The notes under the pieces: model-generated | Told to the model about the DNA's origin: nothing | What the model saw: the letters and a program-made list of their open reading frames with translations, nothing else | Database searches by the model: none | Assembly (NCBI GenBank): GCA_964552755.1 | Contig: CAZKHX010000001.1 | Location: forward strand, 18,007 to 82,006 | Reading direction: 5' to 3' | Length of the DNA stretch: 64,000 nucleotides | Source of the DNA: Candidatus Micrarchaeota archaeon | GTDB taxonomy: Archaea; Micrarchaeota; Micrarchaeia; Anstonellales; Bilamarchaeaceae | Part shown: positions 183-45,889 of the stretch, piece after piece | Layout of the letters: the number at the start of each line of letters is the position of its first letter | Position numbering within the stretch: position 1 is the stretch's first letter | Program-made: the position numbers and the translations under genes

Positions 183-1634
183 ATGGCCATTCCGGGTGCA
201 GCCACCTCAGGCAAAATCCTCAGTGGGATAAAGGACGGCACCTACCAAAAGCTCGTCTACAGGAGGATACCCGCATTCGTCATGCTCTCCATGGGCATGC
301 GGGTGGGGGACGAGGAATCCAACCATAAGGAGCTCGGCTACCCTCACGTACTGCCCACCGACCTGAACGTGGGCAACACGGTCCTCTTCTCGAAGCAGGA
401 ATGGGACAGGGACTTCGAGGCGGTTTCCGCTATGGCGGAAAAAGACCCGAATTTCCTGCACAGGGTTCTTGAGGGCGGCACTGCGCTCGGGGAGAAGCTC
501 ATGGGCATGGGAGACGAGATATTCTCCACCAGTTTTGAAGGCGAGAGAGAAGTCCGCCTTTACGAAGAATTCGGCAGCTTCTACTTCGAATGGATAAGGA
601 TATTCAGCTACCTCGATTCCATCCTCAACATCGAAAAATATATTGAATCCAAAATGAGGCAAATCCTCGAAGTGCGGGGCTGCAAGGATGTGGAAGGCAC
701 CCTCTACGCAATGGCCAAGCCGTCCAAGAAGACAATCGACGCGAACGAGCGGCTGGACATGCTCCGCATCGCTTCGGAATGCAAGCAGGGAATAAGCGAA
801 GAGAAGCTCAGCGGGCTTATAGACGAACACATTGAGAAATACTGGTTCACCAGCTTCTCCTGGGGCTCCGGCTCCCCCATGAGCCGTGGGGACCTCCTAC
901 TGCGCATCAAAGAGGCAAAAGAGCCGGATGCGGAACTGGAGAAGCTCGCGTATGAGGAAGAGATGCAAATAGATGACATGGAACTACGCAGGTGGTCGGA
1001 CCTCGGCCGCGGCTACGCCTGGCTCCGCACCGCCCGGCACCAGGCCGCAAGTTTTTCCCTTGTGAAAGTCCAGCATTCCCTCCTGAAGGAACTTGGGAGG
1101 AGGAAAGGCATTGAGCCCTGGGACATATTGTGGTCTTACCCCGAAGAGCTCACAGAAGGCAACCTGCAGCCCGCTTCCGTGCTGCGGGAAAGGCAGCGCT
1201 TCCCTGTTTTTGGGACTCTGGAGGGTGAAGTTGTCAAACTATACGGCGATTCTGCAGAGGCCCTCGTGAAAGAGGTAAATAGGTTCTTTATCGGAGAAGT
1301 GGAATTTGCAAAGGGCATTGTTGCGAACAAGGTAATGAATATTTCCGGGAAAGCGAAAATAGTGCGCACCGCGGACGAAATCGGAAAAGTGGAGCACGGC
1401 GACATCCTGATAGCGCCCATGACTGCCCCTTCCTTCGCGCCCGCGCTTGAGCGCGCCGCGGCATTCGTGACCGACGAGGGCGGCATCCTCTGCCACGCGG
1501 CGATAATAAGCAGGGAGATGGGCAAGAGCTGCATAGTCGGCACCAAAAGCGCAACTGCAATTTTCAAGGACGGGGATGTAGTGGAACTGGACATAGACAA
1601 AGGGACAGTGAAGAAGGCAGAGCATTCTAAATAA
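183..1634 (+). CDS. Uncharacterised protein with C-terminal PEP-utilising enzyme mobile (phosphohistidine swivel) domain, paralog 1 of 3
   Basis: C-terminal ~80 aa 'GDILIAPMTAPSFAPA...DEGGILCHAAIISREMGKSCIVG' match the PEP-utilizers swivel domain with the conserved phospho-His. N-terminal ~380 aa are unassigned but share motifs ('YW', 'NYA') with the next two ORFs. Confidence 0.7.
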   Translation: MAIPGAATSGKILSGIKDGTYQKLVYRRIPAFVMLSMGMRVGDEESNHKELGYPHVLPTDLNVGNTVLFSKQEWDRDFEAVSAMAEKDPNFLHRVLEGGTALGEKLMGMGDEIFSTSFEGEREVRLYEEFGSFYFEWIRIFSYLDSILNIEKYIESKMRQILEVRGCKDVEGTLYAMAKPSKKTIDANERLDMLRIASECKQGISEEKLSGLIDEHIEKYWFTSFSWGSGSPMSRGDLLLRIKEAKEPDAELEKLAYEEEMQIDDMELRRWSDLGRGYAWLRTARHQAASFSLVKVQHSLLKELGRRKGIEPWDILWSYPEELTEGNLQPASVLRERQRFPVFGTLEGEVVKLYGDSAEALVKEVNRFFIGEVEFAKGIVANKVMNISGKAKIVRTADEIGKVEHGDILIAPMTAPSFAPALERAAAFVTDEGGILCHAAIISREMGKSCIVGTKSATAIFKDGDVVELDIDKGTVKKAEHSK

Positions 1635-1656
1635 TCTTGCGGGCATAGGTGAGCCA

Positions 1657-3207
1657 ATGGAAGAAATGCAGCTTTTGGGAAAAGTGGACCTCAAGCAGGA
1701 ATGGACGCACAAAAGCTTCCATGGGATACTGCACACTTTTTTCCCTGCGGCAGAGGAAGCGTTCAAGCCCCTCAGGGACTATTATGGTGACTCCTTCACC
1801 AGCCATGTTTTCTTCGTCTCAGAAGACCATGCAAACTGGTATTGGAATACCACGGACATGAAGCGGATGCGGGATTCGCTCATAGCAAAAGTAAACGAAG
1901 ACCCGTCCTTCCTCGATAAGCTGCAGGAGGACTGGCTTGTGCGCGTGAAGGCATTTGAGGAAGCGATGGCAGAAGTTGGTTCGACCGACCTTTCAAAGCT
2001 TGATAATGAGGAGCTTTTCAGCCTTTACAAGAAGCTATACCTGGCATATTTGGATGAGTTTGCCCTGTGCACAGGCCTTCAAGAGTCCTTTTCCATGCAT
2101 GCAGATGAGCTTGTGCTGCCCGCGATAAAGAAGTTCCTTGAGGAAAAGGGCATCGGAGATTATTTCGTGGAGTACTATTCCATCCTCACTGCCCCGGTAG
2201 ACGAATCCTTCATCTTCCAGGAGAGGTTCGACCTCCTCAGGATATTGGAGATGGTGCAGAAAAGCCCGGAATTGACGGATTTGTTCGGGAAGGATGCTGC
2301 GGAGATCGAAGAGGAATTGGAAAAACACAAAAAACTGAAAGCCATGCTGGAGGCGCATGCGGAGAAGTTCTACTGGGTGCAGAACAATTACGCAGTAGCC
2401 AAAGTCCTTGACATGAGGTTCTTCATCAACGAAGTCAAGCGCCTCCTTCTCCCGGAAAATGCAGTTGATGCATCCGGCGAATTGAAGAAAATGGAAGCTC
2501 AGGTCCCTGAAATAAAAGAGAGAAAGAAAAAGCTGATTGAGGAGCTCGGCATTCCTCAGGAACTTCAGAATCTGCTCCGGATAGGGGAAGTTTTCACCTA
2601 CATGCAAGACGTCAAGAAGAAATACACCCTCATCTCAAACCATTACCAGAAATTATTCAGGGATGAAATTGGGAAAAGGCTGGGGCTCAGCGAAGAGGAG
2701 ATGGACTATACTTATATCTGGGAACTTGAAGGGATGCTGATGGATGGGAAAGTGGACAAAGGGGCACTGCGCTCCCGGAAAAAAAATTGCATGGGCATCT
2801 TCACCTTGGGCGGCTACCAGATAATATGCGGCGATGAAGCCGGCAGGATTTATGACCGGCAATTCAGGATTAAAGCCAAGGCAGATGAAATACGGGGAGC
2901 TGTTGCCTCTAAAGGAATCGCGAGAGGGATAGTCCGGGTTGTGAGGAAGACCCACGATTTGGTGAAGGTAATGAAGGGGGACGTGCTGGTCGCAAGCATG
3001 ACCCGGCCCGAGATGGTTACTGCGATGGAGAAGGCCTGCGCAATAGTAACGGACGAAGGGGGGCTGACCTGCCATGCGGCAATTGTTTCACGTGAGCTCG
3101 GCATTCCATGCATAATAGGAACAAAAATCGCTACTACTGTCTTGAAAGATGGAGATGAAGTGGAAGTGAATGCGGACAAGGGAAAGGTAAAAAAGATATC
3201 CGGCTGA
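1657..3207 (+). CDS. PEP-utilising mobile-domain protein, paralog 2 of 3
   Basis: C-terminus 'GDVLVASMTRPEMV...DEGGLTCHAAIVSRELGIPCIIG'. N-terminal region shares 'KFYWVQNNYA' with paralog 3 ('KYYWLRCNYA'). Confidence 0.7.
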   Translation: MEEMQLLGKVDLKQEWTHKSFHGILHTFFPAAEEAFKPLRDYYGDSFTSHVFFVSEDHANWYWNTTDMKRMRDSLIAKVNEDPSFLDKLQEDWLVRVKAFEEAMAEVGSTDLSKLDNEELFSLYKKLYLAYLDEFALCTGLQESFSMHADELVLPAIKKFLEEKGIGDYFVEYYSILTAPVDESFIFQERFDLLRILEMVQKSPELTDLFGKDAAEIEEELEKHKKLKAMLEAHAEKFYWVQNNYAVAKVLDMRFFINEVKRLLLPENAVDASGELKKMEAQVPEIKERKKKLIEELGIPQELQNLLRIGEVFTYMQDVKKKYTLISNHYQKLFRDEIGKRLGLSEEEMDYTYIWELEGMLMDGKVDKGALRSRKKNCMGIFTLGGYQIICGDEAGRIYDRQFRIKAKADEIRGAVASKGIARGIVRVVRKTHDLVKVMKGDVLVASMTRPEMVTAMEKACAIVTDEGGLTCHAAIVSRELGIPCIIGTKIATTVLKDGDEVEVNADKGKVKKISG

Positions 3208-3218
3208 ATGGAATTCGC

Positions 3219-4781
3219 ATGAAGAGCGTAGAGGAAGTGAAGGAAGAAGCAAAGAAGGAATGGTACATACAAGGGTTCAACGGTGCTCCGAATTACATGA
3301 TGCTGGGCGAAGTTTCGGGGATTCGGGCATGCAACCGCATGAGCGGCTACGGCTACACGAAGTTTCTCTCGGAATACAGGAACGACTATTGCGATTTTGG
3401 GTATTACGCAAAGGACCTGGAGAATGTGGGGAGGGAATTCATGCGCAGGCAAAGGGAAAACCCTGCCTACCTTTCGGAAATGATAGCGAAATATGATGCG
3501 GAGGCGGAAAAGCTCTTCTCATTCGTGGAAGAGCTCAGGAAAAAGGACCTTTCCTCCCTCCCGGCCGGCGAGCTTATCGGCATTTACCAGGAATTGTTCA
3601 AGCGCTATTACGGGCCGCTCGGCTACGGCCACCTGCTGGAGGGCCTTGTGATAACCTCGGATGGGGTGATAAAGGCGAAGCTGCTGGACGTTCTGAAGAA
3701 GGCGAGGAGGGAAAGGGAGCTGAACAGGATATTTTCGGTCCTTACTCAGCCGGTTGAGCCGTCCTTCACCAACCTGCAGAACCTGGAGATGCTCAGGCTG
3801 GCAAAATACCTGAGGGACAACGGCTATGCAGGGCTGTTCAGGGGCTCTCCCGCGGAAGCGTGGGAAAAGCTTCCCGAAGGGCCGAAGGAAATGATATGGC
3901 GGCATGTTGAAAAATACTACTGGCTGAGGTGCAACTATGCCTCTGCCGTCCCGCTTGGGCCCGAGGACATAGTGGAGGAGCTTGCCGGGCTCGTGACCGA
4001 GTTGAATCTTGAAGAGCAGATAGAAGCGGAAGAGAAGCGCTATGCGCACATCCGCTCGGAAAAGGAAAAGCTGATGGAGGAGCTTGGCATGCAGGACGAA
4101 GAGCTCAGGTCCTACCTGTCCATGATGGAAACGGTTGCCAAGTGGCAGGACGACCGCAAGATTGAGATACTCGTCGGCATCGCAAACCTCGAGAATGTGC
4201 TTTCCGAAATCGTCCGCAGGTTCGGCCTTAAGCAGGAGCTGATGCGGTACTTAATCCATTACGAAGTGGATGAAGGCACCCTCAGGAAAATGACCAATGA
4301 AATGCTGGAAGAGAGGAGGGATGGCTGCGTAATCTATTCAGAACTGGTGGAAAAGGATGGGCTCCCCGACGTTGAAACCACAATTTTCACCGGGGACGAT
4401 TATAAGGCGCTGCACCGGGCCATCAGCGCGGCAAGAAAGGGCACGAGCGAGGACCTCCACGGGCTTACCGCTTCCACGGGAAAGGTTTCCGGCAGAGTAA
4501 GAATATGCAAGAGCCTTGAAAGCATCCGCGACTTTAAGGAGGGAGACGTGCTCGTTGCCTCCATGACAAGGCCGGAATTCGTGCCCGCGATGAAGAAGGC
4601 CGCCGCGATAGTCACGGACGAAGGCGGCATCACGTGCCACGCCGCCATAGTGAGCAGGGAGCTGGGGATTCCCTGCATAATCGGCACGAAGATGGCTACA
4701 AGGGTGCTCAAGGACGGGGACATCGTCGAGGTGAATGCCAACCACGGACTGGTGAGGGTGCTGGAGAAGAAGGAACAGTAA
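3219..4781 (+). CDS. PEP-utilising mobile-domain protein, paralog 3 of 3
   Basis: C-terminus 'GDVLVASMTRPEFV...DEGGITCHAAIVSRELGIPCIIG'. Same architecture as the two preceding genes and tightly spaced with them. Confidence 0.7.
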   Translation: MKSVEEVKEEAKKEWYIQGFNGAPNYMMLGEVSGIRACNRMSGYGYTKFLSEYRNDYCDFGYYAKDLENVGREFMRRQRENPAYLSEMIAKYDAEAEKLFSFVEELRKKDLSSLPAGELIGIYQELFKRYYGPLGYGHLLEGLVITSDGVIKAKLLDVLKKARRERELNRIFSVLTQPVEPSFTNLQNLEMLRLAKYLRDNGYAGLFRGSPAEAWEKLPEGPKEMIWRHVEKYYWLRCNYASAVPLGPEDIVEELAGLVTELNLEEQIEAEEKRYAHIRSEKEKLMEELGMQDEELRSYLSMMETVAKWQDDRKIEILVGIANLENVLSEIVRRFGLKQELMRYLIHYEVDEGTLRKMTNEMLEERRDGCVIYSELVEKDGLPDVETTIFTGDDYKALHRAISAARKGTSEDLHGLTASTGKVSGRVRICKSLESIRDFKEGDVLVASMTRPEFVPAMKKAAAIVTDEGGITCHAAIVSRELGIPCIIGTKMATRVLKDGDIVEVNANHGLVRVLEKKEQ

Positions 4782-4807: not shown

Positions 4808-5719
4808 ATGAAGACTCTTGTTTCTGTTTCAGATTTGAGCAAGGAGGACATCCTGAAAATCCTCGACTATTCGGACAAGTTCGACACCGGGAAGCTTGAG
4901 CCCTACGGATATGCAAAGGGCAAGGCGCTCGGCATAGTCTTCCTGCAGGAGAGCCTGCGCACCTCCGCTTCCCTGAAAGTGGCGATGATAAAGCTGGGCG
5001 GCGGCTGGGTGGACTTTGACCTCAGCTATGTGAAGAGCGGCGAAGAGGACCTGGAGGACAGCCTCGTGGCGATTGCGCCCATGGTGGACATCATAGGCAT
5101 CCGCGGCCCGGCGGACATCGACATCGCGCCCATTGCGAAGGAGATAAGCACGCCGATGGTAAATGCGATGATAGGGATGGAGCACTCAATAGGCGTGATA
5201 TGGATGGCGTACACCGTATGGAAGCGCCTCGGGAAAATGGAGGGGCTGAACGTCGGGGTTTACGGGCTCAGCAGGTACTCCCGGCCGGCGATTGCGCTAT
5301 ACAGGATACTTTCAAAGCTGGGCGCGAACTTCATAGAGGATTCCATCATTGACGAAGCGGGCACGCAGCCGGAGCTGATTGGGGAAATAGAAAAGAACGG
5401 GGGCAAGTTCAGCAGGGGCAAGCTGGAGGATTTCATAGGAAAGGTGGACTTCCTCTTCGTGCCCGAAGGCCTGCCGGTGAAAGGCGCAGACCAGAAGATA
5501 GTGGATGAATTCAACAAAGGGTACAAGCCGCTGAACAATGAAATGCTCAAGGGGCTCAGGGAGGACGCGGTTTTCGAATACTCCATGCCCCGCGCATTGA
5601 CTGACGGGAGATTGGTTGCGGAAAAGGAAGTGGACTCGGACAAGCGCCTCATTACCTACGAGCTGATGGAAAAGGCAATCCCCGTGAACATGGGAATTTT
5701 CGCATGGTGCTTTGAATAG
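4808..5719 (+). CDS. Aspartate/ornithine carbamoyltransferase-fold protein (divergent)
   Basis: N-terminal 'GKALGIVFLQESLRTSASLKVAMIKLGG' resembles the carbamoyl-phosphate-binding region of ATCase/OTCase, with 'SLRTS' in place of 'STRTR'. Canonical HPxQ and HCLP motifs are not recognisable. Confidence 0.45.
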   Translation: MKTLVSVSDLSKEDILKILDYSDKFDTGKLEPYGYAKGKALGIVFLQESLRTSASLKVAMIKLGGGWVDFDLSYVKSGEEDLEDSLVAIAPMVDIIGIRGPADIDIAPIAKEISTPMVNAMIGMEHSIGVIWMAYTVWKRLGKMEGLNVGVYGLSRYSRPAIALYRILSKLGANFIEDSIIDEAGTQPELIGEIEKNGGKFSRGKLEDFIGKVDFLFVPEGLPVKGADQKIVDEFNKGYKPLNNEMLKGLREDAVFEYSMPRALTDGRLVAEKEVDSDKRLITYELMEKAIPVNMGIFAWCFE

Positions 5720-6789
5720 GATATGGCTCACGCTGAGTGCATCATTTTCCGAATAAAAATTCGGGGAAAAGATGACAACAGAAAATTTAGCGTATGTATT
5801 ATGCCTTTAGTAACTGCAGGCTGAAAGCCTCGCTTGCGCTAAGCTCTTACACCCCAGTTCTATCAAACGGATCTGTTATCCGCGGCCTTTGCTTATTCGT
5901 TTTGAGAGTGGCTTCGACCTTAGATGCTTTCAGGTCTTATCCACGTAGAGCGTAGCTGCCCAGCAATGCATTGATACAACTGGTCCACCAGAGGCTCCGA
6001 ATCCCTGTTCCTCTCGTACTCAAGGATCCTTACTCTCAATAAGCAACACTTCCTGAAGATACTACCGTACTGTCTCGCGACGTACTGAACCCAGCTCATG
6101 TGGGACTTTGATGGATGTACAACCCAACCCTTGGTGGCTCCTGCACCACCAGGATGTCCCAAGCCGACAGCGATGTACCAAGCCGCGAGGTCGATGTGTA
6201 CTCTCACCCGCGACGAGCCTGTTACCCCCAGGGTAGCTTGTTTGACAGCTTAAATCCCTACCAATAGGATATTAAGGTTCACTAAGCCCGGCTTTCGCCT
6301 CTGCGTTCCATGCTTTTAAGAACACAGTCAGCCCTGCATTTGTCTTTCACCCTCTACAGCGGATTTCTGACCCGCTTGAGCAGAGCATTGGGCACCCTTG
6401 TTTCCCTATCGAGGGCGTACCGCCCCAGCCAAACTATCCACCTGACGCTGTCCTCTTGCGAGTAAGCAATACCAGAATGATTAAGTGGTGTTACACTTTC
6501 GCCTCCACGCGGCCCGGAAGCCGCGCTTCGAAGGCTCCCACTTACTCTCGGTAACCACCCCGATACCACAACATCAGGCTATAGTAAAGCTCCATGGGGT
6601 CTTCGTTTCCCTCAGGAAGTCCCCGGCATGTTCACCGGGTAGTGAGTTCACCAGGTCCCAAGCAGGGACAGTGGGAGCGACGTTACGCCGTTCATGCAAG
6701 CCGCCAATTAAGCGGCGAGGTATTACGCTCACGTTGTTACTCGCTTCACAAGAAGCGGGGCCGGTCATTTCTGCCGGCCTCCGTGCATC

Positions 6790-7420
6790 GCTGCACGGGT
6801 CGGACTGTATCTTCGGCTTTCGCCGTCTAGCGTTCAGTCTCTGAGGATTCTAGATACTTCGGGATCGGTTTGCGGTTCATCTGGGAGATTATCCGGGCTA
6901 TCCGGTCGAGCCCTTCCCTCCGGAGGTGTTCCTTTTCCTCCATCATGGAAAGAACTTCTTCGAACAGCTCGAAGTTCCTGCGCTTGGAAGTCTGCAGCGG
7001 GTGTTCCTTGAAGAACTCAATGAGTTTCCTCAGGTTTTTCACCCCTCTCACCCGGAACTCCTTTCTGTCTCCATTGTTCTGGGTCACTTTGCCGAATCCG
7101 AAGTAATTCCGGATGCGGTAAAGAACTTCCTCATCGCGCTGGTGCTGCACCACCCTGAATTCGGGCAGCACAGTCCAACCGAGGGTCATTTTCCCGAGCT
7201 TGTTCAAAGCCACGTGGAAACAACCTTCTCCGTCGACGAAACCGGCAATCCACTCAGCATCCAGCCTTTCCTGCTGATTGCCTGCACCCATCGCTTTTTC
7301 ACCACCTTCACGAGCTCTGCAGCGGTTATTAACCGTTGCCTCACCGCATTTCCGGTGGTAGCGTGGGATACACAGGTATTCCAGCATATAGCTAGATTTT
7401 ACTAAGGCAACTTAATTCAC
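6790..7420 (-). mobile_element. 23S rRNA intron (domain IV, about E. coli position 1850-1930) carrying a homing-endonuclease ORF
   Basis: About 600-800 nt of extra sequence lie between 23S landmarks that are adjacent in uninterrupted 23S. The insert contains a LAGLIDADG ORF. Exact splice junctions were not determined. Confidence 0.65.
6827..7387 (-). CDS. LAGLIDADG homing endonuclease (single-motif, I-CreI/I-PorI-like) encoded in the 23S intron
   Basis: 'WIAGFVDGEGCFHV' is a classic LAGLIDADG motif. Size is ~150-185 aa. The true start is probably the internal Met (MGAGNQQ..., ~7291) or the ORF is read through from the exon. Confidence 0.75.
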   Translation of the reverse strand: MLEYLCIPRYHRKCGEATVNNRCRAREGGEKAMGAGNQQERLDAEWIAGFVDGEGCFHVALNKLGKMTLGWTVLPEFRVVQHQRDEEVLYRIRNYFGFGKVTQNNGDRKEFRVRGVKNLRKLIEFFKEHPLQTSKRRNFELFEEVLSMMEEKEHLRREGLDRIARIISQMNRKPIPKYLESSETER

Positions 7421-10025
7421 CTTAAGAGGGTCAGAGTTACCCCCGCTCTTTACCAGCCCTTCTTTCCCTTGGACAGGACTTTCAGGTACTGGCAGTGAGC
7501 AGGCGTCGACCATCGTACGCAGCCTTTCGACCTAGCGATGATCTGTGTTTTTGGTAAACAGTCGCACTCCTCCGGTCTGTGCCACCTGCCCTTTACACAA
7601 AGGCAGGCATCCCTTCTTCCAAAGTTACGGGACCATTTTGCCGAGTTCCCTTGCCTGGGTTATCCTGACACACCTGAGCCTTTTCAGCTAGGGGCACCTG
7701 TACTAGTTCTAGGTACGGTTTCAGAGGATCGGATCAGCTTCTTTTTCACGGGCCACTGGAATCAGCCGAAGAAATTCCCATTAAGGCCTTAATCCCCTTC
7801 TCCTCATAATAAGACTCCGGGGATTTATTGCCCGTAGACAGGGTCTCCCCTGCTCGGCCTATCCAAAAGCGTCGGAAACTGAACTTGCGTTGCCGCATCT
7901 ACCTCCAAAGGGCAGGAATATTAACCTGCTTCCCTTTCCTGCACTAGGAGTTACCTGTGCAGTTAGGATCGCCTAACCCTCAGCTGATTCACATGGCTGA
8001 GGAATCCGTGCCCTATCAGGTGTCCAGGGTTCTCACCTGGATATGCTGCTACTAACGCCAGGATATTCGTACCAGATCGGTCCACAGGAACTCACGCCCC
8101 TGCTTCTCACCAACCCGGTCGCCCCCCTACTCCATAGGCTTTTGGCCTGGGTAAGGTATCGGAATCCGGTTTAGCCCCGTCAATTTTCAGAATCTGCATC
8201 CTCGACTGGTCCGCTATTACGCGTTGTTTAGAGGGTGGCTGCTTCTGAGCCTACCTTCCAGCTGTCTTTGGATAGAGACTCCTTTACGATTAACACTTAA
8301 CCGGAATTTAGGGCCCTTAACCTCACGTACGGTCGTTCCCGTAAGGTTCTACAGGCTTACCCCGTAGAGCCCACCGCCTTCGTCTAAAGAGACAACGGAT
8401 TCGGAGTTTGATAGGAAAGTGACACCTTTCGGAGCCGCTCTTTCCAGTCAGTGCTCTACCCCGCTGTCATCCTCGGAAGACGCTGTGCTGAGACACATTT
8501 CGGAGGGAACCCGCTATTGCTGTGTTCGACAGGACTTTCACCCCTACACCCCGGTCACCCAAGGGGAATATACCACCACTGGTTGCGGGCTTCCACCAGC
8601 CGTCAGGCTGGCTTCACCCTGCCAAGGCGTAGATCACACAGCTTCGGGTCCGTAACATGTGACTGGTCCCCTTTTCAGAGGATGCCCCTCATTGCTTGCG
8701 GGCACTTGCTTTCGCTTCGGCTCTCGCCTTGCCACATGCCATGACTCCCTGGCTCTTGCTTCGAGAAGAAAGATACGACACTGGTTAAACCGCCTCGATC
8801 CCACCCTTGCGGGAGTTCACTTCGGCGGCCCTACCCTTTCGCGCCGTACCTGCCTGTTACCACGTAGTTTCAGGGTCTTTTCGCACCCCTCCCGGGGTCC
8901 TTTTCAGCATTCGCTCGCGCTACTCATTCGCTATCGGTCTAGTGCCCCATATTTAGACTTGGAGATTGGTCTCCCCATATTCCCGTCCTCAAGCCGGAGG
9001 ACGGTACTCTTCATGGATCGCTCCCTTCGCCTTCGCATACGGGACTGTCACCCGCTATGGTATGGCTTTCCATCCAACTTCTGCTCAGCTCAGGGATGCT
9101 CCCCGCCACATCTGCCCTGCATTGCTGCAGGGTATTCGGCTCGGTCTGACCGGCTTTCATTCGCCATTACTAACCGGATCCCAATTGGTTTCTTTTCCAC
9201 CCGGTACTAAGATGTTTCAATTTCCGGGGTTCTTACACCCTCAGCATAACCGAAGGTGCACCGTCAGATCCTAGGATCATAGCTTGCGTGCAGCTACCCT
9301 AGGCGTATCGCCGCTTACCGCGTGACCGTGCGGGCACCAGCCTAGCCATCCACTACGTGGATTGCAACATATCCAAACTTTCTGTTGCCATCTCTTCCTG
9401 AACGTGTTCGCGCATAAAGCGGTCTCAGTAGCTAATGAGCCGCAAAACCTTTTCAGGCCAATGCGCCGCTCTCCCCTGATTGAGGGGACAAGCTAAGTAG
9501 TCTCTTAGTCACCGCGCCATACATGCAGAGGGCGCTCAATAAGAGGTAAGCTAGATATATGAACATACGGCTATTTAAAGGTTTCGTCGGTCCGGAGACG
9601 GGCAGCAGCATTTTTCTTCCTTCTATAACGAAAGCCATTTAACCCCTATTTGCCATAAATAAGCAATTATGCTCGAGCGCATACCCTGATTGTGAAAGTG
9701 GTTGAAAAGAAAGAACACGGGGAGAATGGCGCAGCGAAGAAGCTGGAAGCGCTCGGAGTGGATCCGGCAAGCATATCCCGGAAAAAAGCTTCCATATCCT
9801 ATACTATCCTCGCCCTTTCAAAAGAAGGGGTTGAGCTGCCCATGTCCCTCTCGTTCCCCGATGTGAAGGCGGCAACGGAAGCAAGGCGGGCAGAGCTTGG
9901 GGGCGCGCGCATGGAGATGGCAGGGCGCCTCTGCTTCGGATTCAGCCCGGTGCAATAGGCACATTACAAATTTTTCAGGAAAAACAAAAAACTTAAAAGA
10001 ATCGCGGAATTTATGCTCTCGGTGC

Positions 10026-10306: not shown

Positions 10307-12319
10307 CTATTCTTCCAGGTACATTAAGTAGGTAAAGCCGTCCCTGCTGGAGCCCTCGATGTAGAATTCAAGGAGCGGCAGCCCATAGCCCCTGCCCGCC
10401 TCGAACGGGTTGGCGTTCCCCGGCATCACGAAGACCGCCGGGACCTTCCTTCCTGCCGCAAGGTCATGCTCTCCGGAATACACTTCGAATTTTTCCCTTA
10501 CTCCGAGGTCGCACCCGTCTTCGTAGCACCCGGGGTAATAGTCTGCCTTTATCACAACCGGCCCGTCATCTCCCCCGATGACTATTACCGGCACGGTCGT
10601 TTCCGCCCCGGCAACAACGCCCTTCATCTCATGCGGGCCCTTCACTATGTTCCCGCTGTAGAACGTGGTCCCGGAGACCGCAACCGCCCCGCCGGCGCCG
10701 TTCTCCACTATCAGCTTCGCGCCCACATACCTCTCAAGGGAGCTGTCAAGGTGGTGCGCAAAGGAGAATGGCTTGGGCAGGATGGGCGCAACCGTCCCGT
10801 TGAACACTTCGACGTCATTGTTTGAAACGTTGTAAATCGCAAGCGTGGTTACCGAGAAATCGGAGTTGTTGTAGAGCACTGCATTGGCATCGGCAGTCAC
10901 CGAAACGTCCACGAATTCAGGGGTGGTGACGCTCACCTCAGGCATCTCCGCAATCAGCATCGCCGGGTCCCCGAAGAGCTGGAACTGCATGAGCTGCTCC
11001 TTCCTTTCCGGGGTCATTGATTCGGTAGTTGCAAGCATGCGCTTGTACTGGCTGAGCATGTCCCCGAGGCGGTAGTCGCCCCTCAGGTAGCCATGGTTCC
11101 ACGGGTCAAAGTGCACGGGCGCATGGCTCCTGCTCGCGCCTATGAATGCCACAACGCGGCCGGTTTTGAGAAGCCACTCGGCCAGCACATCACTGCCATG
11201 GTCTATGGCCCCCACCAGGCATGCATATGCAAAATACGCCGGTGGCTTCTCAACCGCCGTACTTGAATAATTCAAGTAGTATCCATATGGCCCCATTTCC
11301 AGGATTCCGTAGGTCCATCCATGGGAAAAGCTGCTTACGAAGTCCGCGCCTTCCTCATTGATGAGGGAGGCAATGTCTCCCCCTTCGTCGGTTGCGCACG
11401 CATGCGGCGCCACATCCTTGACTTCCGGGAGGTTCCCCCGCACGATGCTTTCTTCTATGTTTTCCCTCTCTTCCGTGCTGAATCCATCCTGGCAGTAGCC
11501 TCCCTTGGTGACTAAGTGCACTGGCCGCTCCTGCGGCGCCCAGCCCATAATGGTATCAAGCATGGCCTCAAGCTCCTCAACGGTCTGCACGGGCAGGCGG
11601 CCCACTGCCGTTTCCCCGTCTAGCGAGAACTCGTCCTCCATGAGGCCCATTTCGCCGTAAATGCCGTCTCCATCCGTGTCCCACGTGCCGGAGAAATTGG
11701 CATAGTACTCATCAGCAGGCATGATTGAGTCGTTGTATGACTCCTCCAAGGTACCAAAATCTTCCATCGGCCCTTCGCTATAGTCCGCACCTTCCATGCT
11801 CACATAGCGGGCGTGCACTTCCCACGGCTTGTCGGTTTCGTAATTGGGCCATTCGCCCTGCCGGTAATCGTCAGCGTCAACATCCCCAATAATGAAAAGA
11901 TAATCCATGCCGCCGGAAACCCTGAGCTGTGCAAGGTAATCCCTTATCCTCCCGGGCGGGTCATCCCCGCTCCCTGAGGGGATTTCCTCGACCGTAACCA
12001 CTTCAACCTCAAAGCCTTCCTCGGCCTTTGCATCAACATAGCGCTGGAGGGAACCCTTGAACATTTCGCGCGTGAGCACGACAATCTTTTTTGCCTGCTC
12101 CGGAACCACCGCGGTGATGGGCGGCCTGTTCGCGGTAAAGCCCGGTTGCGGGTCCTTTGGCAAATTCCCGTCCTTGCCGCAGCCCACGAGCCCGCCAACA
12201 ATAATAGAAGCAGTGAGAACCGCTGCGCGGCCGAAAGCCCTTATGCCGCCCGGGCGGCGGTCCGGCTCCCGCTCTGTGCATGGTGCATCGCTGCGTGCCT
12301 TCCTTATGGGGGCCATAGT
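10307..12319 (-). CDS. Secreted lipoprotein with clan CD (gingipain C25/caspase-like) cysteine peptidase-like domain
   Basis: Signal peptide ends in a lipobox-like 'LVGC'. A His-Gly...Ala-Cys dyad ('FSHGW' ... ~35 aa ... 'YACLVGAIDHG') is spaced as in clan CD peptidases. Start is taken at 'MAPIRK'. Confidence 0.45.
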   Translation of the reverse strand, partial: TMAPIRKARSDAPCTEREPDRRPGGIRAFGRAAVLTASIIVGGLVGCGKDGNLPKDPQPGFTANRPPITAVVPEQAKKIVVLTREMFKGSLQRYVDAKAEEGFEVEVVTVEEIPSGSGDDPPGRIRDYLAQLRVSGGMDYLFIIGDVDADDYRQGEWPNYETDKPWEVHARYVSMEGADYSEGPMEDFGTLEESYNDSIMPADEYYANFSGTWDTDGDGIYGEMGLMEDEFSLDGETAVGRLPVQTVEELEAMLDTIMGWAPQERPVHLVTKGGYCQDGFSTEERENIEESIVRGNLPEVKDVAPHACATDEGGDIASLINEEGADFVSSFSHGWTYGILEMGPYGYYLNYSSTAVEKPPAYFAYACLVGAIDHGSDVLAEWLLKTGRVVAFIGASRSHAPVHFDPWNHGYLRGDYRLGDMLSQYKRMLATTESMTPERKEQLMQFQLFGDPAMLIAEMPEVSVTTPEFVDVSVTADANAVLYNNSDFSVTTLAIYNVSNNDVEVFNGTVAPILPKPFSFAHHLDSSLERYVGAKLIVENGAGGAVAVSGTTFYSGNIVKGPHEMKGVVAGAETTVPVIVIGGDDGPVVIKADYYPGCYEDGCDLGVREKFEVYSGEHDLAAGRKVPAVFVMPGNANPFEAGRGYGLPLLEFYIEGSSRDGFTYLMYLEE

Positions 12320-12456
12320 AATACTATTGTGGCTGGAAGTGTTTATAAATGTATTTTTTTGGCAGAAGGTGGTTGTTCGCGCACACCCGTGTTCCCGCCC
12401 GGAAATGGGCAAAAAACCGCAACCTTTATATTACACATCCTTCCCTAAATAACCAT

Positions 12457-29900: not shown

Positions 29901-31108
29901 GGGCGGTCCGCCTCATCTGCCCCAACTGCATGGTCGCAGTGGGCGCGGGTTATACCGGATACGGGGGGGATGCCGAGAACAGCTACCAGCGCCGGCTCGA
30001 TTTCGCGAACTTCCTTTTCCGCTACCAGAACGAATCAACGCATTACATACTCAACGGGCCGGACAGCTACAACCTGACCATCCCGTGCGAAGACCCGCGG
30101 CTTGAATGCGACAACGAGGCCCTGAACCTGGTGGACGTGCTTGCGATGAAATGGGAGCTCAGCAAGGAGGATTCCTTCTGCGAAATAGAAAATGAGCAGG
30201 AGCGCTTCCAGGCAATCCTTGACGCGGAAACCGGCCTCGGCTCGCGCATGCTTGCGCGCTTCCACAAGCCGGTCGTGATTACGGACTTCAGCATAGTGCT
30301 CACCGAGTTCGATACCTGCTGGGACGCGGAGAGCGCCGCACGCTTCATGGTATTCCTTTCGGAGCACACGCAGGAGCTTGCGGAGAGCGGCCACCTAGGC
30401 ATAATCTATGATGCATGGACGAAGGAGCGGGCGGAGGCCGCGCCCACGGGCACCGCCACCGCTGCGGAGCAGGGCCGCGCCTACATCCGCGTGGACTCGG
30501 GCGACGTGGACGGCAGGAGGGGCACGTTCTATGAGGGCGCCTTCATCGCCTCGCGCATCTTTGCGGGCTACGAGCACAAGACCTATTTCAACGAGGTGAG
30601 CGCAACCGAGGAATGCTACTGCGAGCCCTGCCTGCCCTCCGACCCGGATGAGATTTGCAACGGCCGCTACCGCGGGGTTGGCTATGAGTGCAAGGACTAT
30701 GACGGCTCGCGCAGCAAATGGTCTGAAATGTGCGTCTCGCTCAACCAGTGCACCCTCCCCGGCGAGGATGATTATGAGATTGAATGCGACGTGATATACA
30801 ACAACGGCACCCGCACCACGGAAACCTACCATTCTGATGACATTGCGGAAACCCCTCAGCTCTACATGGACGTGATTGCCTCAATCGAGGAGGGCTACGG
30901 CACGCCCTGCTTCAACTTCAGCGGCAATTACATAAGCTATGTGAAGATTGGCGAGCCGATTTTCCAGGCAACGCCCACGATGTTCAGGACCGATGGCGAC
31001 ACCGCCAAGTCCTGCACCCCGCTGGAGGGCTTCGACCTTTCCTTCTGCGGCTACACGCCGCCCGTGAGCGACAGGGAGATGCACTGTGAAATACTAGGGG
31101 TGAGGTGA
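26951..31108 (+). CDS. Giant (1387-aa) secreted cysteine-rich lipoprotein
   Basis: 'MMKKLLALPAIAFLFLLGC' is a signal peptide plus lipobox. The protein is very Cys/Asp/Tyr/Asn/Gly-rich throughout and has no TM after the signal. It is translationally coupled to M6. Confidence 0.75.
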   Translation: MMKKLLALPAIAFLFLLGCNAPTYQDCCLYANASDSGICVMLNGTIYDDSTCDMELLTCNVTLDDRELEIPLCPKVDKVRCNTSCVGVFCGSFDYDPRPLPSPADDMQSDDEESQERVTAGSASERGPINLFQSECRVKNITPAFLRAAKSTGGFTLNVFRFGVGNSFAEFDEAMAYFPLTDLSCRINMYGTKDRYVNYVLPNSIDGSEKLCRFTGILDAMYICNIDSTIESHSYYDCASRCALAYQGYEPNVDPDNPYPTENEAGELVGNPFSYGIYGTYSLAPAEPLVLSSKYRDQVDMSGITFTSTSPFKDEYQPGYNFYGATFRKSDSLSAERGGIDWAVARYGLPIFFTDSIYDYYSGEMEDTDSMEFSGSTTVFTTAEQDLHGAYIPLLTHHSVYADQLAEGHRLDNGSWMPGAEFECADNSECISGFCNTFDYHRGNCIPKDKWILGEYISNYEVPCGCWEYQGETLCPGMQSYEAQAWDDTSERVRATAALSAPVRAHKELEVLTPLRSMPSKGRVFSHEDDETGETIPYVVIQVGGESRHPTYGYTNFGALDMAGVFDDESYRAAMAAWLMAVDARTLTIDQALSRDKWGQCGTDCGKFYTTFAEACMPEWDSDPDAYDYFHMCREFPEVSGGSAPPAAVYGKKVSPSTGEAVDSGFCASLNGNSELYDEVFCYERNIDDDCVAWSTTAIVVEPRPVTYRDEEGREIAGYAFGNCLADEDGTELLTHTYGICEQCTFLTLAKQEIVPLPQDEDDPGYPGSGDREDNKYCPNVVVETPYEPNDPAVTKFGSLGPYDEWQVGGTHGTEDYSQCYMPDYSENGLQEAWADYLPNAYYLKRKTESYLVRGVMPVIVATNDSLWEAYTSPGGERDWALMAYYWNHITRDDEGYARVTIDASHPYMIELAENEPQLLEQFAQHDEAGEYYAFGGPLLLNGIQDMGAAIIIVGNQDLGDWSSIPLFGAYSAGGGASNRDRARAVRLICPNCMVAVGAGYTGYGGDAENSYQRRLDFANFLFRYQNESTHYILNGPDSYNLTIPCEDPRLECDNEALNLVDVLAMKWELSKEDSFCEIENEQERFQAILDAETGLGSRMLARFHKPVVITDFSIVLTEFDTCWDAESAARFMVFLSEHTQELAESGHLGIIYDAWTKERAEAAPTGTATAAEQGRAYIRVDSGDVDGRRGTFYEGAFIASRIFAGYEHKTYFNEVSATEECYCEPCLPSDPDEICNGRYRGVGYECKDYDGSRSKWSEMCVSLNQCTLPGEDDYEIECDVIYNNGTRTTETYHSDDIAETPQLYMDVIASIEEGYGTPCFNFSGNYISYVKIGEPIFQATPTMFRTDGDTAKSCTPLEGFDLSFCGYTPPVSDREMHCEILGVR

Positions 31109-31118
31109 GGGTGATTTA

Positions 31119-34100
31119 ATGTTTTGTCCCGAAATAAAGGCGATGAGGCCCGCCGCATTCCTTGCGCTCCTGATTCTCGTTTCCCTAGCCTTTTCCACGA
31201 CCGGCCGGCTGCCCATGCAGATCGACCAGCCGCCGCTTATACCCGGGATGGGCGTCCCGCCCATGCACGTCCCTCCCCCTTGCGAGGAATGCCCTGCAGA
31301 GGGTTCCCTGCAGCCGTTCATGTTCTCCTCCCTAAATGAGGAGGCGGAGATTACCACTGTTACGATGGGGGTGCAGGCTGCGGACGAGCGCTACCCCGTG
31401 GAGGGCGCCACAATTTTTGCATATGTTTACGACCGTGACGGGTTCGAAACTGACAAGTGCAGGATGTACACCGATTCATCCGGCACCGCGGAATTCGACT
31501 TCAGCGGCATCCCGGAATGCACCGGAGGGGACGGGTGTACGATGCGCTTCATCTTCTGCTGCCCGAACCCCGGGCAGGGGTGCCTCATCGCAAGCTGCCT
31601 TGACGAGCCGATTACCGATTATACTGATTTCCCAATGTGCGCAGATTACAGCGGCGGGATATGGCCCGAGGCCGCAACGGTAGACGGTTCAGAGGAGCCG
31701 CTTTTCCCTGCGTATACCGAAACGGTGAGGCCGCCCGAAGAGGTGGTGATTGGCACCGCATTCGAGTTCGACCTCTGCTTCCCGGTGCTTGTCATTTTCG
31801 GCTTCCTTGCGGCCGCGATGTTTGCCGCGGGCAGGAATCCCTTCTCTGCATTTTCCATCTACACCCCGCGCTACACGCGGGGCGCGGAGCGCGCAATCAG
31901 TGCCCGCGGGTTTTCAATTGACGCGGCAAGCGTCGCGAGCGCGCTCGGCCTCGCCATGGCAGGGGGCAAGGCGCTCAAGAAGGCCGCGAAAAAGGCCGCG
32001 GCAAAGGCCAAGAAAGCGGGAGTGAGCGCCAAAAAGGTGCAGATGGCGGTGAAAGGCGCACAGACCCCTTCCAAGAAGCTGGGAGTGCAAGAAGGAGAAG
32101 AGGCAAAAGGGGGCGCGCAGGCCCAAAAGGCCGAATTGACCGGGGCGGGGGGGCCGACGCAGGCGGAAATAGCGATGGGCGCGGCCGCAGGAAAAGCGAT
32201 GCCCGGAGGCACCGCGATGGCCTTCGGAAAGTCCTTCTTCAAGGCAATATTCTCAATATTCAAGGGCGGCGATGCCGCAAGGGCAGCATGGGCGGAATTC
32301 GGGCAGCTGATGTCTGCCGGCAAGTTCAGGGGAGACATGGCGGCCCAATACCAGGGAGCAGGGGTAAGGGAGGCAGGGCTCGCATTCCTGGATACCCTCC
32401 TGCTGTTCGCAACCCCCTTCGGCCTTTACTATGCATTCGGGCAGCTGGGCCCGGTCAAGAAGCAGCTTGCCAAATACCAGGGCCAGAGGAACGCTCTTGT
32501 CGCGGCAGGCCTCATAAACCAGTTCAAGGAAGGCACCGCCTACATAAAGGAGAAGGACGGCATAGTCACGGTGCAGTTCGACAACGTCGCCACCGGGGAA
32601 ACAGTAAAGGAAACGTTTGACATAACCACAGAAAAGGGCATGAAGGCCTACCAGCACTTCCTCAACATCAACATAGTGATGCCTATCCAGATAGGCACCT
32701 CATTCATCCAGAGCCAGATGCAGGAAGGCCAGCAGGAAATGGCAAAGCAGGGGAACGGGGCGCTTACAGGGGATTCCGGGGACCTGCTCACCCAGTTCTA
32801 CCTTGTCGAGCAGGGCATGAACGTTGCGGAGCTCCAGAAATACTCCGACGCAAAGGCAGTCGACGCGGTGCTCACAGACCGCAAGGCCACTTCCGAGCAG
32901 AAGCTCTTCGCATTCCTTGCCTACATGTCCTCGGACAAGGCGAACCTTGCGAAGGCATCAAAGGAATACACGAGCTTCAACAGCTTCCTGCTCGGCTACG
33001 GGGGGGCCGCGGACCTAGTGGGCGAAGACGGCAAATTCAACGTTTCCGCCCTTACCGGAGCAATGCTGCTCTCGGGCCAGCTGGAAGGGGTATCCGAGAA
33101 GAAAGTCAGCGGCATAGCCGCGTTCAAGGCGAACCTTGAGGGGACCGTTGACCGGACAACCGGAGCGGCGCAAAACGAGGCAATAGAATCCCAGCTGCTG
33201 GCAATGGAAGCGCAGATGCTGCTTGAGGGAAAGGGCGAAAGGGAAATCGCGGTTGCGAAAAACAGGCAGGAGGCATACCTGCGCGGGAAGGGCATGGGGA
33301 TTTCCTCCGTCCTCGCGACCGAAGGCATGGGCGAGGACAGCAAGGCCGTCCAATTGGGCATACTCTCCCTGGGCTTTGCGAACATGGCCTATTCCGAGCA
33401 GCTTGGGAACAAGTCAATTGCGGAAACCGGCACCGGCAAGCTGAACAAATACTCTGCGGAGTATGCCGCGTGGAAGAAGCTCGAGATAGACGTAAGCGAG
33501 AGGAAGGGGGAGAAGCTGGAGCAGTTTGCGGATTCCTATAAGGATTATCAGGCATTCCTCGGGTATTCGCAGGAGATTGCGCTCGCGCTCCCGGAAATGC
33601 CCCCCGCGCTGCAGTACAAGCCGGAGGGCTCGCCCTCTGCCATGGCAATCGGCGTGGTTTCTGGGCAGGCGAAGCTGGAGAGCGTCCCGAAGGTGAGCGT
33701 CGGGGACGTTGCGGTTGCAGGCACCTACCAGATAGTGGGCAACCAGCAGGAAGCCGCGACGTATCTCAAAAACCTTGGGCAGATAGGCAATGCGTTCGAA
33801 ACGATGGGAATGCTCCTGCAGCCGATGGCAGTGGCCAACAACATAAACGCAATGAGTGTAGGCGGGGACCCGGAAACCGGCAAGGAAGGCAAGCCAGTTT
33901 ACGAACTGCTCGTTTCGGGAGAGCCGAAAGGCAAGAAGAAGGGAGAACTGTACGACTCGGCCATCTATGTAATGATGAGCACGCTGGAAACCTCATTCGG
34001 CGAGCCGCTTTCCACGCGGGGGGCGGAGGAGTATAAACAATTCGACTACATAAACTCCGGCGCGAAAAAGGCAGGGGAAAAGCCGCCGGAATATAAGGGC

Positions 34101-45783: not shown

Positions 45784-45889
45784 TGGGGCTGTAGGGATTT
45801 GAACCCTAACATGCAGGTTTCTTGAGAGAACTCCGCCGAAGCGGATCTCGCCTGGAGCCTGCCGCGCTACCTGGTTACGCCACAGCCCC
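45784..45889 (-). tRNA. tRNA-Trp(CCA) with ~33-nt intron
   Basis: Acceptor GGGGCUG/CAGCCCC, D-stem GCGU/GCGC, anticodon stem GCAGG...CCUGC, loop 'CUCCAG^intron^A', T-arm UAGGG-UUCAAAU-CCCUA. The intron is a hairpin 'GGAGAUCCGC-UUCG-GCGGAGUUCUC' with no obvious box C/D. Confidence 0.75.

Follow-up and report, generated by a model that had tools for sequence, protein, structure and literature searches.

An IB4-like group I intron with an endonuclease gene running through its ribozyme core in the stand-alone 23S rRNA gene of a Micrarchaeota-like archaeon

Introduction

Which kind of intron interrupts an archaeal 23S rRNA gene when the insert carries an open reading frame (ORF) for a LAGLIDADG homing endonuclease? 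The question is raised by a 64-kb stretch of contig CAZKHX010000001.1, hereafter called the window, in which a large subunit (LSU, 23S) rRNA gene is split by an insert of this kind. A sequence-only reading of the window had expected a classical archaeal intron, cut by a protein endonuclease at bulge-helix-bulge (BHB) junctions and released as a circle. Our analyses favour a different type: we assign a probability of about 0.93 to the reading that the locus is the stand-alone 23S gene of a Micrarchaeota-like archaeon of the DPANN superphylum, with a mobile IB4-type group I intron at position 1931/1932. The junctions carry no BHB; a group I fold with strong covariation was found instead, and the homologues point not to the endonuclease-spliced type but to the archaeal IB4 group I introns already published for LSU/1931.

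The intron is a member of an already published kind, archaeal group I introns having been known since 2018, and several Micrarchaeota IB4 introns at LSU/1931 have been listed (Nawrocki, Jones & Eddy 2018, NAR 46:7970; PMC6125680). It leaves current understanding unchanged, as both archaeal IB4 introns at LSU/1931 and unlinked DPANN rRNA genes are published; its sole mildly new element is that the course of the ORF through the ribozyme core has been mapped explicitly.

Results

Position of the intron in the 23S gene

The Rfam archaeal LSU model (RF02540) matched the minus strand from 5788 to 9376 over its full length (model positions 1-2987, 2343.1 bits), the match extending over 3589 nt against 2987 model positions. 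In a focused covariance-model (CM) alignment, only one insertion was seen: 690 nt stand opposite one consensus position, flanked by ...GACCCUCUUA and GUGAGCGUAAUACC (in longer form, ...GGGGGUAACUCUGACCCUCUUA and GUGAGCGUAAUACCUCGCCG). The intron was delimited as 6730-7418 (689 nt) because the consensus CUUAAGGU|AGCGUAAUACC is then restored at the junction, with U at 7419 as the last base of the 5' exon and A at 6729 as the first base of the 3' exon. The sequence split in this way, ...CUCUUAAGGU|AGCGUAAUACC..., corresponds to E. coli U1931|A1932 in the universally conserved H69-H71 region, and bears out the earlier placement of the intron in domain IV. The interrupted 23S gene itself had also been recognized by the sequence-only reading, which was right about the gene and its insert but gave limits (5797-9397, strand unstated) that were off by 9 and 21 nt. 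The same intron-bearing 23S gene was present in four independent metagenome assemblies (23S identity 100%, 100%, 100% and 98.8%), which rules out an assembly artefact.

Unusual insertions are known in the rRNAs of DPANN archaea and of the bacterial Candidate Phyla Radiation (CPR) (PMC11270868), and the insert could in principle be retained in the mature rRNA, as an expansion segment or as foreign DNA, or the gene could be a dead rRNA pseudogene. We consider this to have a practically negligible probability: the exons aligned end to end to the archaeal LSU model (2343 bits) with no further defect, the insert lies in universally conserved H69-H71 and has all the hallmarks of a removable group I intron, and no second 23S copy was seen in the 64-kb window. 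The sequence-only reading had held an expansion segment lacking a BHB to be the finding that would speak against it; a BHB is indeed lacking, yet the insert is not an expansion segment.

Group I hallmarks and homologous introns

When the intron was scanned against Rfam with permissive settings, the group I model RF00028 matched below threshold (20.4 bits, E=0.009); the high-confidence part of this match is the universal group I core, UCAGAGACUGAACGCUAGAC-[P8]-GAAGAUACAGUCC. The core sequences R (UCAGAGACU) and S (AAGAUAnAGUCC), together with the bulged nucleotide in P7, were present with high posterior probability against RF00028, and R and S were invariant among the archaeal homologues. The terminal omega-G, at 6730 in the window, was found in all 21 aligned archaeal homologues and in nearly all bacterial ones.

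Homologues of the encoded endonuclease were numerous (2257 at E<=1e-5, many of them 60-79% identical), the nearest protein in a large database being 97% identical. A scan of species-representative genomes yielded at least 559 loci with such homologues, of which 80 were fetched; these comprised archaea (Micrarchaeota, Nanoarchaeota, Woese- and Pacearchaeota, Aenigmatarchaeota, Nitrososphaerota) and bacteria (Chlamydiales, Pseudothermotoga, Gammaproteobacteria, CPR and others). A simple splice rule parsed 60 of the 80 loci as insertions at exactly ...TAAGGT|AGCG..., and most of the remaining 20 were recovered by a looser rule for the 3' exon. Applied to AQRL01000028.1 (locus L011), the same rule returned 30565-31289, exactly the published coordinates of the intron IB4.12, and this agreement fixes, by homology, both the numbering (L1931 in E. 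coli) and the subtype (IB4). In bacteria, the introns L073 (Pseudothermotoga) and L051 (Chlamydiales) encode endonucleases with 48-50% identity to that of the window; the two introns scored 67.2 and 61.7 bits with RF00028, above its gathering score of 50, and their matches covered the whole intron length.

Three of the fetched loci call for separate mention. L027 (SKHL01000283.1, labelled Limnochordia bacterium) and L035 (NZCP01000004.1, labelled Woesebacteria) carry an archaeal LSU (RF02540, 1960 and 1826 bits) with an archaeal-type L1931 intron, and are probably archaeal contigs mis-binned into bacterial metagenome-assembled genomes (MAGs). At L009 (JBBILJ010000028.1, Micrarchaeota), a locus of 2266 nt, the LSU model covered only 997-1414 (model 2153-2713) despite clear exons around the L1931 intron, and this 23S gene may have further insertions.

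Secondary structure of the ribozyme

In order to model the structure, 25 archaeal-type introns were extracted, their non-coding ends were aligned, and all column pairs were scanned for covariation, the Rfam alignment of the bacterial L051 serving as guide (Table 1). The 63 proposed pairs were then counted in a fresh, independent MAFFT alignment of 21 archaeal homologues. Pairing was observed in 91.4% of the cells, against 33.6-44.3% when the partners were slid by 1-3 columns, a contrast that is inflated because the structure was partly derived from the sequences tested. Double-sided changes affected 35 of the 63 pairs (21.5±1.9 in shuffles) and the covariation score was 0.385 (against 0.132), values reached by none of 500 shuffles. 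The formal test was limited to the archaeal type: when bacterial and archaeal introns were aligned together with MAFFT, their 3' halves were misaligned, because the ORF lies in P8 in the bacterial type and in L6 in the archaeal one.

Table 1. Coordinates of the 23S gene, its intron and the elements of the ribozyme in the window.
Feature	Position	Strand	Remarks
23S (LSU) rRNA gene, archaeal type, intron included	5788-9376	-	RF02540
5' exon of 23S rRNA	7419-9376	-	ends ...CUCUUAAGGU, U1931 equivalent; CM alignment
3' exon of 23S rRNA	5788-6729	-	begins AGCGUAAUACC; CM alignment
Group I intron, IB4-like, at LSU/1931, 689 nt	6730-7418	-	last base 6730 = G (omega-G)
LAGLIDADG_1 homing-endonuclease ORF, intact, 154 aa	6827-7291	-	stop UAG 6827-6829 inside P3'
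P1 5' strand, UUAAGGU	7419-7425	-	last 7 nt of 5' exon
P1 3' strand, internal guide sequence GCCUUAG	7402-7408	-	intron bases 11-17; conserved in archaeal and bacterial homologues
P3 5' strand, UCUAGC	7391-7396	-	partner GCUAGA 6826-6831
J3/4, UAUA	7387-7390	-	
P4 5' strand, UGCUGG	7381-7386	-	partner UCAGCA 7272-7277, within ORF (codons N-Q-Q)
J4/5, AA	7379-7380	-	conserved
P5 5' strand, CCUGU	7372-7376	-	partner GCAGG 7281-7285
P5a extension hairpin	7287-7367	-	
P5a outer stem, CCCACGC / GCG(A)UGGG	7361-7367 / 7287-7294	-	
P5a inner stem, UACCAC / GUGGUG	7355-7360 / 7300-7305	-	
P6 3' strand, UCC	6845-6847	-	partner GGA 7269-7271
J6/7, UCA	6842-6844	-	
P7 5' strand, G(A)GACUG	6835-6841	-	bulged A; guanosine-binding helix; partner CAGUCC 6802-6807
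P8 hairpin, CGGC-GAAA-GCCG	6814-6825	-	
J8/7, AAGAUA	6808-6813	-	follows P8
P9 hairpin	6781-6798	-	GCGA loop
P9.1 hairpin	6759-6779	-	visible in window sequence itself
P9.2 hairpin	6742-6757	-	visible in window sequence itself
Conserved GUAACA	6735-6740	-	after P9.2
Processing stem, 5' strand	9377-9398	-	pairs with 5765-5787; cofold and direct sequence reading
TATA-like box TTTAAATA	9572-9579	-	possible own promoter; read from the sequence

P1 was 98% paired, with a U·G at the 5' splice site in 21 of 21 sequences. P3, which spans about 560 nt across the ORF, was 99.2% paired, with double-sided changes in five of its six pairs; P7 was 100% paired (double-sided changes in 2/6), forms the canonical pseudoknot with P3, and agrees with the RF00028 consensus UCAaAGACUA...AAGAUAUAGUC. 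All four pairs of P8 changed on both sides, and P3, P7 and P8 were all 96-100% paired. Likewise, P9 was 100% paired (double-sided changes in 6/7), the outer stem of P5a 95.9% paired (7/7), and P5, with two of five pairs changed on both sides, covaries as UCUG/CAGA and UCCG/CGGA. P4 was 100% paired, and its one double-sided pair of six is the compensatory change in L035 (UGCGGG/UCCGCA), which supports the placement of its 3' strand, UCAGCA, inside the ORF; this P4/P4' agrees with the positions in the Rfam alignment of L051. Finally, P6 (GGA/UCC) was invariant in 21 of 21 sequences and was assigned solely by homology with that alignment.

Two other pairings were tried for P4 and rejected. The first joined UGCUGG to the nearby CCACGC, as in the CCACGCA of Tetrahymena, but the all-against-all covariation scan paired CCCACGC with GCG(A)UGGG at the start codon. 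The second, CUGGA/UCUAG, had no compensatory changes and several mismatches, and left no room for P6. A placement of the ORF in J6/7 was also dropped, in favour of L6 with a core overlap.

Besides the inflated contrast with the slid controls, several points weigh against a mobile group I intron. Covariation evidence is lacking for P6 (3 bp) and for the greater part of P1 and P4, which are invariant, and the P9.1/P9.2 region is poorly aligned among homologues. The intron lies below the RF00028 gathering score (20.4 against 50 bits), as do its archaeal homologues (28-31 bits). Neither an empty allele nor ongoing homing was seen, all four environmental copies carrying the intron, and splicing, its independence of proteins and the activity of the endonuclease are predicted from sequence. 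Regarding the low scores, RF00028 was reported to find nothing in archaea, where subtype-specific models for IB4 and IA3 were needed (PMC6125680).

No BHB motif at the splice junctions

A classical archaeal BHB intron, as in Vdi141.L1927 or the I-DmoI intron of Desulfurococcus, would be excised by EndA at two 3-nt bulges, with ligation of the exons and a circular intron as products. The host must have EndA, because the window contains an intron-containing tRNA-Trp gene, and archaeal 23S introns with a single-motif LAGLIDADG exist at L1927, 4 nt away, which made the expectation a reasonable one. To score the motif, defined as two 3-nt bulges separated by 4 bp, both possible geometries were enumerated at the CM-defined junctions. 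At the exact junctions, the best arrangement scored 2/4 central and 5/12 overall pairs, a result equalled or surpassed by 95.5% of position pairs drawn at random from the same rRNA. When the junctions were allowed to shift by ±3 nt, up to 10/12 pairs could be formed, a value that 12% of random pairs attain, and six additional nucleotides would then remain in a universally conserved stretch. It is P1 that takes up the junction sequences, and the endonuclease is distant from I-Vdi141I (E=2.6e-11, against 1e-47 for the I-OnuI type). The Rfam CM alignment that the sequence-only reading had proposed for locating BHB junctions defined the intron bounds, but no BHB at them, and we consider BHB splicing very improbable here. 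Since the tRNA-Trp intron, used as positive control, failed by virtue of its relaxed motif, the scan had no clean positive control, and this negative result is based on the enumeration together with the positive evidence for a group I intron.

That tRNA-Trp gene (anticodon CCA) lies at 45784-45889 on the minus strand; an intron of some 33 nt follows its position 37, and the gene was detected by Rfam (54.4 bits) but missed by ARAGORN. The predicted fold of its intron contains only a relaxed, non-canonical BHB.

A reading frame threaded through the ribozyme core

In the group I fold, the endonuclease frame passes successively through P5a', P5', P4', P6, L6, P6', J6/7 and P7, and stops within P3'. 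The bulk of the gene lies in L6, the P4-P6 domain being split by 420 nt of coding sequence, whereas the likely start AUG (7289-7291) and, 5 nt upstream, a Shine-Dalgarno-like GGUGA (7299-7303) both belong to the 3' strand of P5a, a covarying helix. The strands P5' (GCAGG), P4' (UCAGCA) and P6 (GGA) are decoded as G-A-G-N-Q-Q-E, and P6', J6/7, P7 and P3' as L-E-S-S-E-T-E-R followed by UAG, so that frame and core share about 60 nt. Because of this overlap, residues N5, Q7, E8, R9 and L10 and the C-terminal LESSET are invariant or nearly so. RNA compensation is even visible in the protein: G4, where the family consensus is D4, mirrors CCUG/CAGG against UCUG/CAGA in P5, and N-P-Q in L035, instead of N-Q-Q, mirrors its P4 UGCGGG/UCCGCA.

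The overlap of ORF and core may regulate translation or splicing. In particular, one could imagine a built-in switch, in which the folded, splicing-competent RNA is not translated, a translating ribosome unfolds the core, and endonuclease is made from misfolded or excised RNA only; we regard this as tentative, at somewhat less than even odds. Here translation and RNA folding would be in conflict, and the locus lends itself to testing this. Moreover, the homologous gene sits in P8 in bacteria, implying a relocation between loops of one ribozyme lineage.

The endonuclease and a possible maturase role

The ORF at 6827-7387 on the minus strand matched Pfam LAGLIDADG_1 (PF00961, E=1.9e-24, 86.9 bits against a cut-off of 23.1) as a single domain. 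The true start is likely the ATG at 7291, which gives a protein of 154 aa, and gene callers picked the same 154 aa on identical metagenome contigs; the intact single-motif LAGLIDADG ORF noticed earlier is therefore confirmed. The protein has all columns that are invariant in a 25-sequence family alignment, GFxDGEGCF included, and its motif reads IAGFVDGEGCF, with D20, G21, E22 and G23 invariant throughout the family.

Comparison with the structure database PDB retrieved I-OnuI-type enzymes (E=1e-42 to 2.4e-47) and just E=2.6e-11 for I-Vdi141I. Each half of I-OnuI, I-PanMI, I-AabMI and I-SmaMI aligned to the entire window protein, and a 170-aa single-domain relative was found in PDB entry 5gkk (E=2.2e-40). 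Enzymes of the I-OnuI family are two-domain monomers with targets in mitochondrial protein genes; in contrast, the single-domain window protein would need dimerisation, acting as a homodimer, and its predicted target is rDNA. It represents a candidate rDNA-specific meganuclease, with a candidate target duplex around the insertion site of 5'-GGGGGTAACTCTGACCCTCTTAAGGTAGCGTAATACCTCGCCG-3'.

Alternatively, the ribozyme may no longer splice alone, and the LAGLIDADG protein may be, or double as, a maturase, the ORF being kept for splicing and not for homing. LAGLIDADG maturases are known in fungal mitochondria, e.g. I-AniI, which is a weak PDB match to the window protein. In line with this role, the intron is seemingly fixed, as each of the four environmental copies has it, conservation of the ORF is high over thousands of homologues, and the P4-P6 domain is small (P5 4-5 bp, P6 3 bp) besides its interruption by 420 nt of coding sequence. 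However, all catalytic residues of the LAGLIDADG motif are kept, including the invariant acidic E22, which argues for a retained nuclease function, and related bacterial L1931 introns of Thermotoga are cited as self-splicing in part of the literature. We thus judge a maturase role unlikely, although clearly less so than BHB splicing.

Under the reading of a self-splicing, mobile intron, the 23S RNA would be transcribed, probably from its own promoter, and excised via a 22-bp flanking processing stem. By established group I chemistry, the intron RNA would fold into a P1-P10 ribozyme, in which the guide GCCUUAG pairs with the exon end UUAAGGU, so that the U·G wobble comes to lie at the 5' splice site. 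P7 would bind an exogenous guanosine, which would attack this site; the terminal G (6730) would then take the place of the guanosine in P7 and the exons would be ligated, restoring the H69-H71 region. Homing would follow from cleavage of intron-less 23S rDNA by the endonuclease around ...CTCTTAAGGT|AGCGTAATACC..., the cut allele then receiving a copy of the intron.

Comparison with known introns

The intron shares its site, core sequences, helices and host superphylum with the published archaeal IB4 introns at LSU/1931 (IB4.12, and IB4.24 and IB4.25 of Micrarchaeota; PMC6125680), and falls in the same length class (680-760 nt with a homing-endonuclease gene). The endonuclease of IB4.12 (AQRL01000028.1) belongs to the same LAGLIDADG_1 lineage, with 67% amino acid identity. 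The window comes from a different species, the closest species-representative endonuclease among the matches listed being 75% identical, and its P5a, P9.1 and P9.2 hairpins have other sequences and lengths. The overlap of ORF and core mapped here is absent from the description in PMC6125680.

The bacterial L1931 introns L073 and L051, members of RF00028, have the same site and the same guide, GCCUUAG. They resemble the window intron in J3/4-P4 (UAUAUGCGGGAA against UAUAUGCUGGAA) and share with it AAUCCUCAGAGACU in J6/7-P7 and AAGAUAnAGUCC, the endonucleases being about 50% identical; we take them to be of the class known from Thermotoga and Simkania. In contrast to the window gene, which runs from P5a to P3', theirs lies in the P8 loop, as seen when L051:1298-1937 is set against 6730-7418 of the window, and leaves P4'-P6 non-coding, with the protein beginning at about residue 9-10 of the window numbering. 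The bacterial introns lack P9.1 and P9.2 and pass the Rfam threshold, whereas the window intron has both hairpins and stays below it.

Vdi141.L1927 with I-Vdi141I (PMC2602781) is likewise an insertion in domain IV of an archaeal 23S, 4 nt from the site described here, of a similar length (about 600-700 nt) and with a single-motif homodimeric LAGLIDADG protein (169 aa, against 154 aa in the window). It is, however, spliced by a protein endonuclease at a BHB, whereas the window intron is of the ribozyme type and has none; the two proteins are distantly related (E=2.6e-11). The BHB expectation, reasonable as it was with such a neighbour, is hence not applicable here, and a LAGLIDADG intron in archaeal rRNA should not be equated with a BHB intron by default. 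The locus adds one more clean archaeal group I example, with covariation-tested secondary structure and exact splice sites, and rRNA annotation and 23S phylogeny of this Micrarchaeota lineage must excise 6730-7418.

Genomic context and host

The 23S gene is unlinked from the 16S and 5S genes, at least across 54.6 kb upstream and 5.8 kb downstream: neither a small subunit (16S) nor a 5S rRNA had an Rfam match within the 64-kb window, and the neighbours on both sides are protein-coding ORFs. The separation from 16S suggested earlier thus holds, and extends to 5S. The flanking stem is a perfect 22-bp inverted repeat (GGAAGAGAUGGCAACAGAAAGU / AAUUUUCUGUUGUCAUCUUUUCC) that abuts both mature 23S ends, and the 3-nt bulges of a BHB were not visible in it; archaeal rRNA processing stems without BHB bulges are unusual. 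The TATA-like sequence is preceded by CGAAACC and situated upstream, some 195 nt from the mature 23S 5' end. Stem and box, read from the sequence, are consistent with an independently transcribed and processed 23S gene. Unlinked rRNA genes are prevalent in DPANN (PMC8997704).

The named sequences closest to the serine hydroxymethyltransferase of the window (64-76% identity) all came from Micrarchaeota, Micrarchaeia or Iainarchaeota, which points to Micrarchaeota and agrees with the small-genome, DPANN-type host proposed earlier. The genome-borne endonuclease that was closest among the matches listed (75% identity) also comes from a Micrarchaeota MAG. The mature 23S sequence gave no taxonomic signal in blastn searches against the fetched loci (66-70% to all), and no halophile signature was seen in the isoelectric points of the window proteome (median 5.7).

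Just downstream of the 23S gene, at 183-4781 on the plus strand, lie three tandem paralogous genes with PEP-utilizers domains (483, 516 and 520 aa), and next after them, at 4808-5719, a 303-aa gene with an OTCace_N domain. At 10307-12412, on the minus strand, is encoded a large predicted secreted protein with a Peptidase_C25 domain (669-701 aa), and several very large proteins with signal peptides (1345 and 1385 aa) are found between 20 and 35 kb. The Peptidase_C25 protein and the giant signal-peptide surface proteins would fit an episymbiotic DPANN lifestyle.

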